The translations under genes and the position numbers were made by a program. A stretch of 14,825 bases of DNA, from the NCBI RefSeq assembly GCF_044324875.1, contig NZ_CP172189.1; one strand, given 5' to 3'. Positions 3,933 to 4,165 of this stretch are shown in pieces. How positions within the stretch are numbered: position 1 is the first letter of the stretch; each line of letters starts with the position of its first letter. The stretch is from Escherichia coli. Its GTDB lineage: Bacteria > Pseudomonadota > Gammaproteobacteria > Enterobacterales > Enterobacteriaceae. The notes beneath the pieces were generated by a model, which saw only the letters and a program-made list of their open reading frames with translations, searched no databases and was not told where the DNA came from.

Positions 3933-4165
3933 TGAACCGCCCCGGAAATCCTGGAGACTAAACTTCCTGAGAAAGATGTAAACAGGATGACTAAAAATAC
4001 TCGTTTTTCCCCCGAAGTCCGTCAACGGGCAGTTCGTATGGTTCTGGAAAGCCAGGGCGAATATGACTCACAATGGGCGGCAATTTGTTCCATTGCTCCA
4101 AAGATTGGCTGTACGCCAGAGACCCTGCGTGTCTGGGTTCGCCAGCATGAGCGGGATACCGGGTA
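3933..4165 (+). mobile_element. IS3-family (IS629/IS1203-like) left-end remnant: left inverted repeat plus the first ~59 codons of orfA, then truncated
   Basis: TGAACCGCCCCGG...CTGGAGACTAAACTTCCTGAGAAAG is an IS3-family left terminus; orfA follows at 3987 and loses family similarity after ...RQHERDTG. Confidence 0.75.
3987..4163 (+). pseudogene. Truncated IS3-family transposase OrfA (N-terminal HTH part only)
   Basis: [59 protein letters not shown] matches the IS629-type OrfA N-terminus. The ORF then runs into unrelated sequence (YYLSKKF...) and stops. Confidence 0.75.

Follow-up and report, generated by a model that had tools for sequence, protein, structure and literature searches.

A truncated IS1203/IS629-group left end in a hybrid Col plasmid of Escherichia coli, most likely an inert and inherited deletion scar

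The stretch of Escherichia coli DNA analyzed here, referred to as the window (14,825 nucleotides; contig NZ_CP172189.1), contains the left end of an insertion sequence (IS) whose remainder is missing. The question raised by this locus is how the remainder was lost, and whether the loss played any part in the making of the hybrid plasmid in which the fragment is now found.

Positions 3933-4163 of the window, on the plus strand, correspond to bases 1-231 of a full IS3-family element with 231/231 identity (E=4e-119), the reference full copy being positions 2501-3790 of a sequence from an E. coli plasmid. This bears out the IS3-family left-end stub recognized in an earlier note on this DNA. That note had placed the stub at 3933-4165, of which the start stands and the last two bases do not, given that the IS-derived sequence stops at 4163; the bases at 4160-4163 (CGGG) are common to the IS and to a repeat in the flank. 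The 5'-TG start of the terminal repeat is present, the end of the stub is identical to the left end of the full copy, and the left terminal inverted repeat at 3933-3957 (plus strand; TGAACCGCCCCGG...) pairs at 22 of 25 positions with the right inverted repeat of the full element. A blastn search with the full element (word size 7) over the whole 14.8 kb window found no other fragment of it: orfB, the frameshift region and any genuine copy of the right inverted repeat are absent, as had been claimed for orfB and the right end, and the lone further match is that of the right repeat of the full element to the stub's own left repeat.

The full relative of the stub reaches 302.9 bits against NCBIfam transpos_IS3 (cutoff 160) and 95 bits against Pfam rve, and it also contains HTH_21 and HTH_Tnp_1. 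PGAP annotates 'programmed frameshift' and an AL1L pseudoknot on related elements, and the parent is, by these profiles, a genuine IS3-family element. The orfB DDE (rve) transposase of this family, made via a -1 programmed frameshift, is found in the full relatives and is missing from the window. Related 1310-bp copies are labeled by PGAP as 'IS3-like element IS1203 family' or 'IS629 family', and the name IS1203/IS629 as used here rests on these labels. Elements of this group (~1310 bp) share the left repeat and the OrfA N-terminus with the stub, and their copies across E. coli are ~92-98% identical to it over its 231 bp (94.8% for a PGAP-named IS1203-family copy, 231/231 for one full copy). 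In contrast to them, the stub has neither the OrfA coiled-coil, nor the frameshift pseudoknot, nor OrfB (DDE), nor the right repeat, and it is best described as the left end of an IS1203/IS629-group element (IS3 family), a remnant rather than a functional member.

What is left of orfA begins with the ATG at 3987 and extends through 4163 on the plus strand, which amounts to exactly 59 of its 108 codons, in agreement with the left repeat and about 59 orfA codons previously noticed. The frame then reads 13 plasmid codons up to a stop at 4203-4205, giving rise to a chimeric ORF of 72 amino acids (3987-4205, plus strand). This ORF matches Pfam HTH_Tnp_1 (PF01527) with 32 bits (cutoff 24.1 bits; E=1.5e-7) over residues 1-56 and profile positions 1-49 of 75; the full OrfA, with 108 amino acids, spans profile positions 1-74. 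The stub therefore retains the HTH part only, and ends just ahead of the coiled-coil part of the full protein. In RefSeq, the 177 nt of stub orfA are annotated as a partial transposase pseudogene ('transposase, incomplete, missing C-terminus'). Given that the dimerisation region, the frameshift site, the DDE domain and the right end are all missing, the stub is predicted to be incapable of transposition.

The site is preserved in its IS-free form in the colicin R plasmids (pColR) pLH10-b-1-D and p14408_3, whose flanks match the window at 99.4% identity. When aligned to this empty site, the window departs from it precisely at 3932/3933, and the left junction is a clean transposition junction (GCCGGAC/TGAACC) where the empty site reads GCCGGAC/AACTTT in pColR, pEGY2 and pTB-nb2; the GAC at 3930-3932 (plus strand) is presumed to be the left copy of the target duplication. 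In pColR, 155 bp that end in CGGGATATCGGG link ...TCTCTGCCGGAC to TATTACCTTTCG..., which are the flanks that the stub now separates. In the large plasmids pEGY2 and pTB-nb2 both flanks match one stretch at 79-81% and are joined by ~156 bp, unrelated IS insertions nearby aside. Because these more distant relatives also carry the ~156-bp stretch, the IS-free state is read as the ancestral one.

The left flank and what had been taken for an unknown island to the right of the stub belong together as one old non-coding segment, a 2.3 kb part of the backbone that is absent from ColE1. Its left part (3615-3932) and its AT-rich, non-coding right part (4164-5930) are contiguous in pColR. The homology to ColE1 ends at 3614, and ColE1 holds just 52 bp where the window has 3615-5930. 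The 318 bp to the left of the stub show 100% identity to plasmids of the pSMS35_8 and pColY types and 99.4% to pColR, and only 17 PLSDB plasmids contain them at 99% identity or more. On the right of the stub, the 1.6 kb of 4164-5790 are covered to at least 80% in only 29 PLSDB plasmids, at 79-100% identity. The earlier note had described a deletion or rearrangement scar at the boundary of a module; a deletion did make the stub, but there is no module boundary at this place, given the contiguity of the flanks in pColR (99.4%) and in pEGY2 and pTB-nb2 (79-81%). The IS struck the remnant of a small hypothetical ORF, of which the 3' part is seen at 3768-3932 on the minus strand (homologue of the 81-aa WP_045148228.1). 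Since this ORF is already frameshifted in the IS-free pColR, the insertion probably cost nothing functional.

These states can be connected by a simple history. A full IS1203/IS629-type element (IS3 family, ~1310 bp) would have inserted once at GCCGGAC/AACTTT, in a non-coding stretch of a ColE1-like colicin backbone between exc2 and the 3' end of the mob operon. Target duplications in the IS3 family are 3-4 bp long, and the length of 3 bp used here is an assumption taken from the family; no target duplication was seen at two other copies of the element that were inspected, both in rearranged IS-rich DNA. The right junction of the full-IS intermediate would read ...GGGGCGGTTCA-GAC-AACTTTAACTG. 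A later deletion would then have fused IS nt 231 to plasmid DNA 155 bp beyond the insertion point, so that IS nt 232-1310 were lost along with the second copy of the target site and 155 bp of plasmid. This corresponds to 1079 + 3 + 155 = 1237 bp if the element was 1310 bp long and had duplicated 3 bp of its target. Of the element, only the left repeat and the HTH half of OrfA would have stayed, and the scar would have been handed down one backbone lineage as colicin operons were swapped. Insertion followed by such a deletion predicts a gain of 76 bp over the empty site, and the observed span is 367 bp versus 291 bp. A full IS at this site was found neither in 5426 complete E. coli genomes nor in PLSDB, and a scan of metagenome contigs for the right end followed by 3-4 nt and the empty-site flank gave 0 matches. 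Given that the full-IS intermediate was not found, we infer insertion and deletion from the two end states, as we do their order, the length of the element, the 3-bp duplication and the enzymology.

The deletion junction lies in a 12-nt repeat, CGGGATACCGGG in the IS (nt 220-231) versus the sequence in which the 155 bp of pColR end (nt 144-155 past the insertion point), with an 11/12 match; this single mismatch, and the use of pColR as a 99.4% proxy for the true parent, speak against the reconstruction. The window keeps one copy of the repeat, at 4152-4163 on the plus strand, and because this copy carries the IS version of the mismatch, the crossover would have occurred within the final CGGG (4160-4163). 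Between the 1310-bp IS and 2000 bp of flank there are only five independent pairs that match at 11 or more of 12 positions, and the junction falls on one of them, for which the calculated chance is ~2e-6 for one random endpoint pair. With both endpoints in an 11/12-nt direct repeat, the deletion appears to have been driven by short homology.

The way in which short homology was used is less firmly indicated. Because the repeat is long and the deletion has no endpoint at an end of the IS, its origin is judged more likely than not to be replication slippage or template switching. The loss of IS629-type elements at short homologies, by slippage or by a route that depends on IEE and transposase, has been described (PMC9943667; bioRxiv 10.1101/2023.06.07.543989), and both kinds of event leave a single repeat copy at the junction and remove IS DNA together with adjacent DNA, as is seen here. 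The deletion could also have been begun by the transposase of the element, through cleavage or copy-out replication at the right end, with the resected break being joined at microhomology by an IEE-type PrimPol-helicase. Excision of IS629/IS1203 and flanking deletions of a few nt to more than 40 kb are documented to need both transposase and IEE, IEE joins ends in vitro with at least 4 bp of homology, and iee is found in more than 30% of E. coli assemblies (PMC9943667; bioRxiv 10.1101/2023.06.07.543989). The junction does hold a 4-bp exact core (CGGG) within the 11/12 repeat. Nonetheless, the deletion neither begins nor ends at an IS terminus and spared the left 231 bp, whereas the excision described removes the IS and the extra deletions described adjoin it; here one endpoint lies 1079 bp inside the IS. 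The 11/12 repeat is also longer than the 2-4 bp scars reported, being unusual for IEE events and typical of slippage between short repeats. The transposase/IEE route is for these reasons possible but rather unlikely.

The IS-adjacent deletion that had been proposed in the earlier note does not fit the junction. In its classical, transposase-driven form such a deletion also loses DNA beside an IS, but it keeps the IS whole and begins exactly at the IS end. Here the IS is cut at nt 231, its right end is gone and most of the IS itself was removed, which excludes this mechanism.

Slippage or template switching, the favored origin, and the transposase/IEE route are both weighed on an event for which the empty site survives, so that a natural loss of an IS1203/IS629-type element through an 11/12-nt short-homology deletion can be fully reconstructed. 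The reconstructed deletion bears on the debate between slippage and IEE-mediated IS loss.

The distribution of the scar was surveyed in the 5426 complete E. coli genomes, which contain 23 matching records. The stub is present in 19 of them with the same junction (17 span 367 bp, i.e., 291+76, and two are split by the record start), and the empty site in three, all of them colicin R plasmids. The remaining record, the 5.7 kb plasmid NZ_AP039434.1 (4884-4979), represents a third state. In this plasmid the last 36 bp of the deleted 155-bp stretch and the right flank are kept, and the left flank is missing. Carriers of the stub are pSMS35_8 (NC_010485.1; colicin E1-like operon), pB771_9494 (colicin Y) and ~17 other small Col plasmids, all with an identical junction and with flanks that are 99.6-100% identical. 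The operons that accompany the scar are of several kinds, colicin E1-like and colicin Y among them, and because the same scar sits with different colicin operons it predates the plasmid studied here. This points to a scar that formed once, is older than this plasmid, and was inherited during the exchange of colicin operons. Unlike pSMS35_8 and pB771_9494, the scar-bearing backbone of the window has recombined with ColE1, to which it is joined through an IS21-family element.

The survey also bears on whether the stub is real. IS repeats are known to cause assembly collapse, and on this general ground the stub might be an artefact in which a full IS was collapsed. The same junction is, however, found in 19 complete plasmids that were independently assembled from different hosts and countries, and it reads straight into unique plasmid DNA matching pColR, which leaves a collapsed assembly with next to no probability. 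The intact full-length element that the earlier note had considered as an outcome of re-assembly is thus not what these plasmids contain. Taken together with the reconstructed junction, it is very likely that the stub is a local and inherited deletion scar, produced by insertion and subsequent short-homology deletion, which is inert and had no part in making the hybrid plasmid.

That the stub was instead kept for a function is very unlikely. Two roles can be envisaged, an HTH-only OrfA' that modulates IS1203/IS629, or the 231 bp with the left repeat acting as portable homology for recombination. The 72-aa ORF is intact, with AGGA 3 nt upstream of its ATG, and homologous IS copies are present in 3641/5426 E. 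coli genomes. On the other hand, conservation of the stub does not exceed that of the neutral DNA beside it, whole backbones being 99-100% identical, and RefSeq treats it as a pseudogene. OrfA' is also without the coiled-coil region that follows the HTH in full OrfA; in IS911, the coiled-coil region of OrfA is needed for multimerisation and for stable binding to the IS ends. In its specific form, in which the stub serves resident IS1203/IS629 copies as a handle to capture or co-mobilise the Col plasmid, or encodes an HTH-only modulator, a function is hardly more probable, and if true it would explain the persistence of the scar amid the swaps of colicin operons.

The stub is most likely an inert scar, and its biological weight is small. 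It was already known, in that it is annotated in public records, and dead IS ends are commonplace; the value added here is limited to the exact reconstruction of the deletion and to the use of the scar as a lineage marker. As such a marker it is clean and of single origin. It tags one lineage of ColE1-like backbones in which colicin operons (E1-like, Y and others) have been swapped, while the site as it was before the insertion is kept in the colicin R plasmids.

The proposal that the stub is a fusion boundary, at which IS-adjacent deletion joined a colicin E1/exc module to foreign DNA and which would explain a missing mob region, has to be weighed against the composition of the window. It is true that the window combines DNA of two Col plasmids and has two RNAI/ori regions, and that ColE1 has so little in the place of 3615-5930. 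The first 2277 positions are 100% identical to ColE1 and contain the colicin E1, immunity and lysis genes. Positions 2278-3498, with exc1 and exc2, are also of ColE1 type, the window showing no difference from ColE1 from at least 2200 up to 3498. The part from ~3453 to 10103, which contains the stub, the island, mob and ori, is 99.5% identical to the colicin Y plasmid pB771_9494 and has a backbone common to pSMS35_8. It is followed by a complete IS21-family element (10104-12742) and by 12743-14825, which is 99.95% identical to ColE1 and contains a truncated mbeA, a MobC-family gene, rop and ori.

The first difference from ColE1 occurs at 3499 and the last difference from pSMS35_8 at 3452, so the crossover between the parental types, which came about by homologous recombination, lies in the 46 bp of 3453-3498, at the end of exc2. 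This interval lies 435-480 bp to the left of the stub, and the first module, which the earlier note had ended at the stub, already ends there as far as ColE1-identical DNA is concerned. The mob region said to be missing is present on the minus strand 1.8 kb to the right of the stub, with mbeA at ~5935-7488 and a MobC-family gene at ~7478-7801 (mapped pSMS35_8 annotation). The same scar is moreover carried by non-hybrid plasmids of 8.9-9.5 kb, and the stub flanks are contiguous in pColR, pEGY2 and pTB-nb2. A stub that acted as the fusion boundary is for these reasons scarcely credible.

The other junction between the parents is the IS21-family element at 10104-12742, which corrects the plasmid map: the fusion junctions are the 3453-3498 interval and this element, not the stub, whose tie to the plasmid fusion is not upheld given that the scar predates the plasmid. 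The element is 2639 bp long, has TG...CA ends, and is 99.6-100% identical to the listed IS21-family copies, which PGAP names IS21 family transposase and ISSso4 family IstB. It is bordered on the left by a 209-bp 3' part of the colicin Y gene (9895-10103) and on the right by the truncated mbeA of ColE1 (ColE1 nt 4360), and no target duplication was found at its flanks. One consistent two-step model, which we infer from this arrangement, is that a pColY-like plasmid, with an IS21-family element in its colicin Y gene, would be fused with ColE1 by this element. Recombination between the two direct exc2 regions would then delete the second IS copy and the 5' part of the colicin Y gene, and with them the exc genes of pColY type and ColE1 from nt 4361 to ~5427.

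The window contains two RNAI genes (9-113 and 8919-9021; Rfam, gathering threshold) and two mob regions, one intact (~5935-7801) and one truncated (~12743-13740). Because its ends adjoin in ColE1 (2277/2278), the window is probably the whole of a circular 14.8 kb two-origin hybrid of ColE1 and a pColY-like plasmid, unless its ori repeats, which are 94-100% identical, led to a misassembly. The hybrid junction between the truncated colicin Y gene and the IS21-family element (cya'::IS21) occurs in no record of the complete E. coli genome set, and a plasmid identical to the window turned up neither there nor in PLSDB, of which the best record covers 76% of the window.

The island to the right of the stub, whose GC content goes down to 27%, was also considered as gene cargo, and this was rejected. 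Pfam gave no family for the 108-aa island ORF or for the 81-aa homologue of the remnant at its left, WP_045148228.1. Over 4234-5804 the island is 79% identical to pEGY2; the mismatches show no preference for any of the three codon positions, and the two sequences share no ORF. A search of 3462-5935 with Rfam at E<=1 returned nothing credible, and at the gathering threshold only the two RNAI genes are found in the window.

Other observations were made on this segment. The AT-rich stretch at 4164-5804 has blocks conserved at 90-95%, against an average of 79% to pEGY2, and contains 11 terminator-like hairpins versus 2.4 in shuffles. A candidate small RNA of ~90 nt that matches no Rfam family is seen on the minus strand at 4628-4755, where a promoter-like TTGATA-18-TATGAT (4755-4726) precedes a 5' hairpin and a strong terminator hairpin (4663-4637) with a U-run; the fold has a z-score of -3.74. 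Relative to the sequences of pEGY2 and pTB-nb2, the terminator stem shows one compensatory change from C-G to U-A, and its loop is inverted (ACAGA versus TCTGT). The 46 bp at 4185-4230 are missing from the homologues in pEGY2 and pTB-nb2, and a 55-bp stretch that overlaps them matches at 88-92% within genes annotated as 'terminase' on E. coli plasmids of ~90 kb and is also found on Salmonella plasmids. The stretch could be a piece of a gene or a short repeat of the dispersed kind. The homologous segment of the two large plasmids (pEGY2 1344-7614 and pTB-nb2 4382-5610) is an IS hotspot, flanked by IS1203-like copies with their right ends inward. It is broken at two different positions by another IS3-family element, whose ends look like those of IS2.
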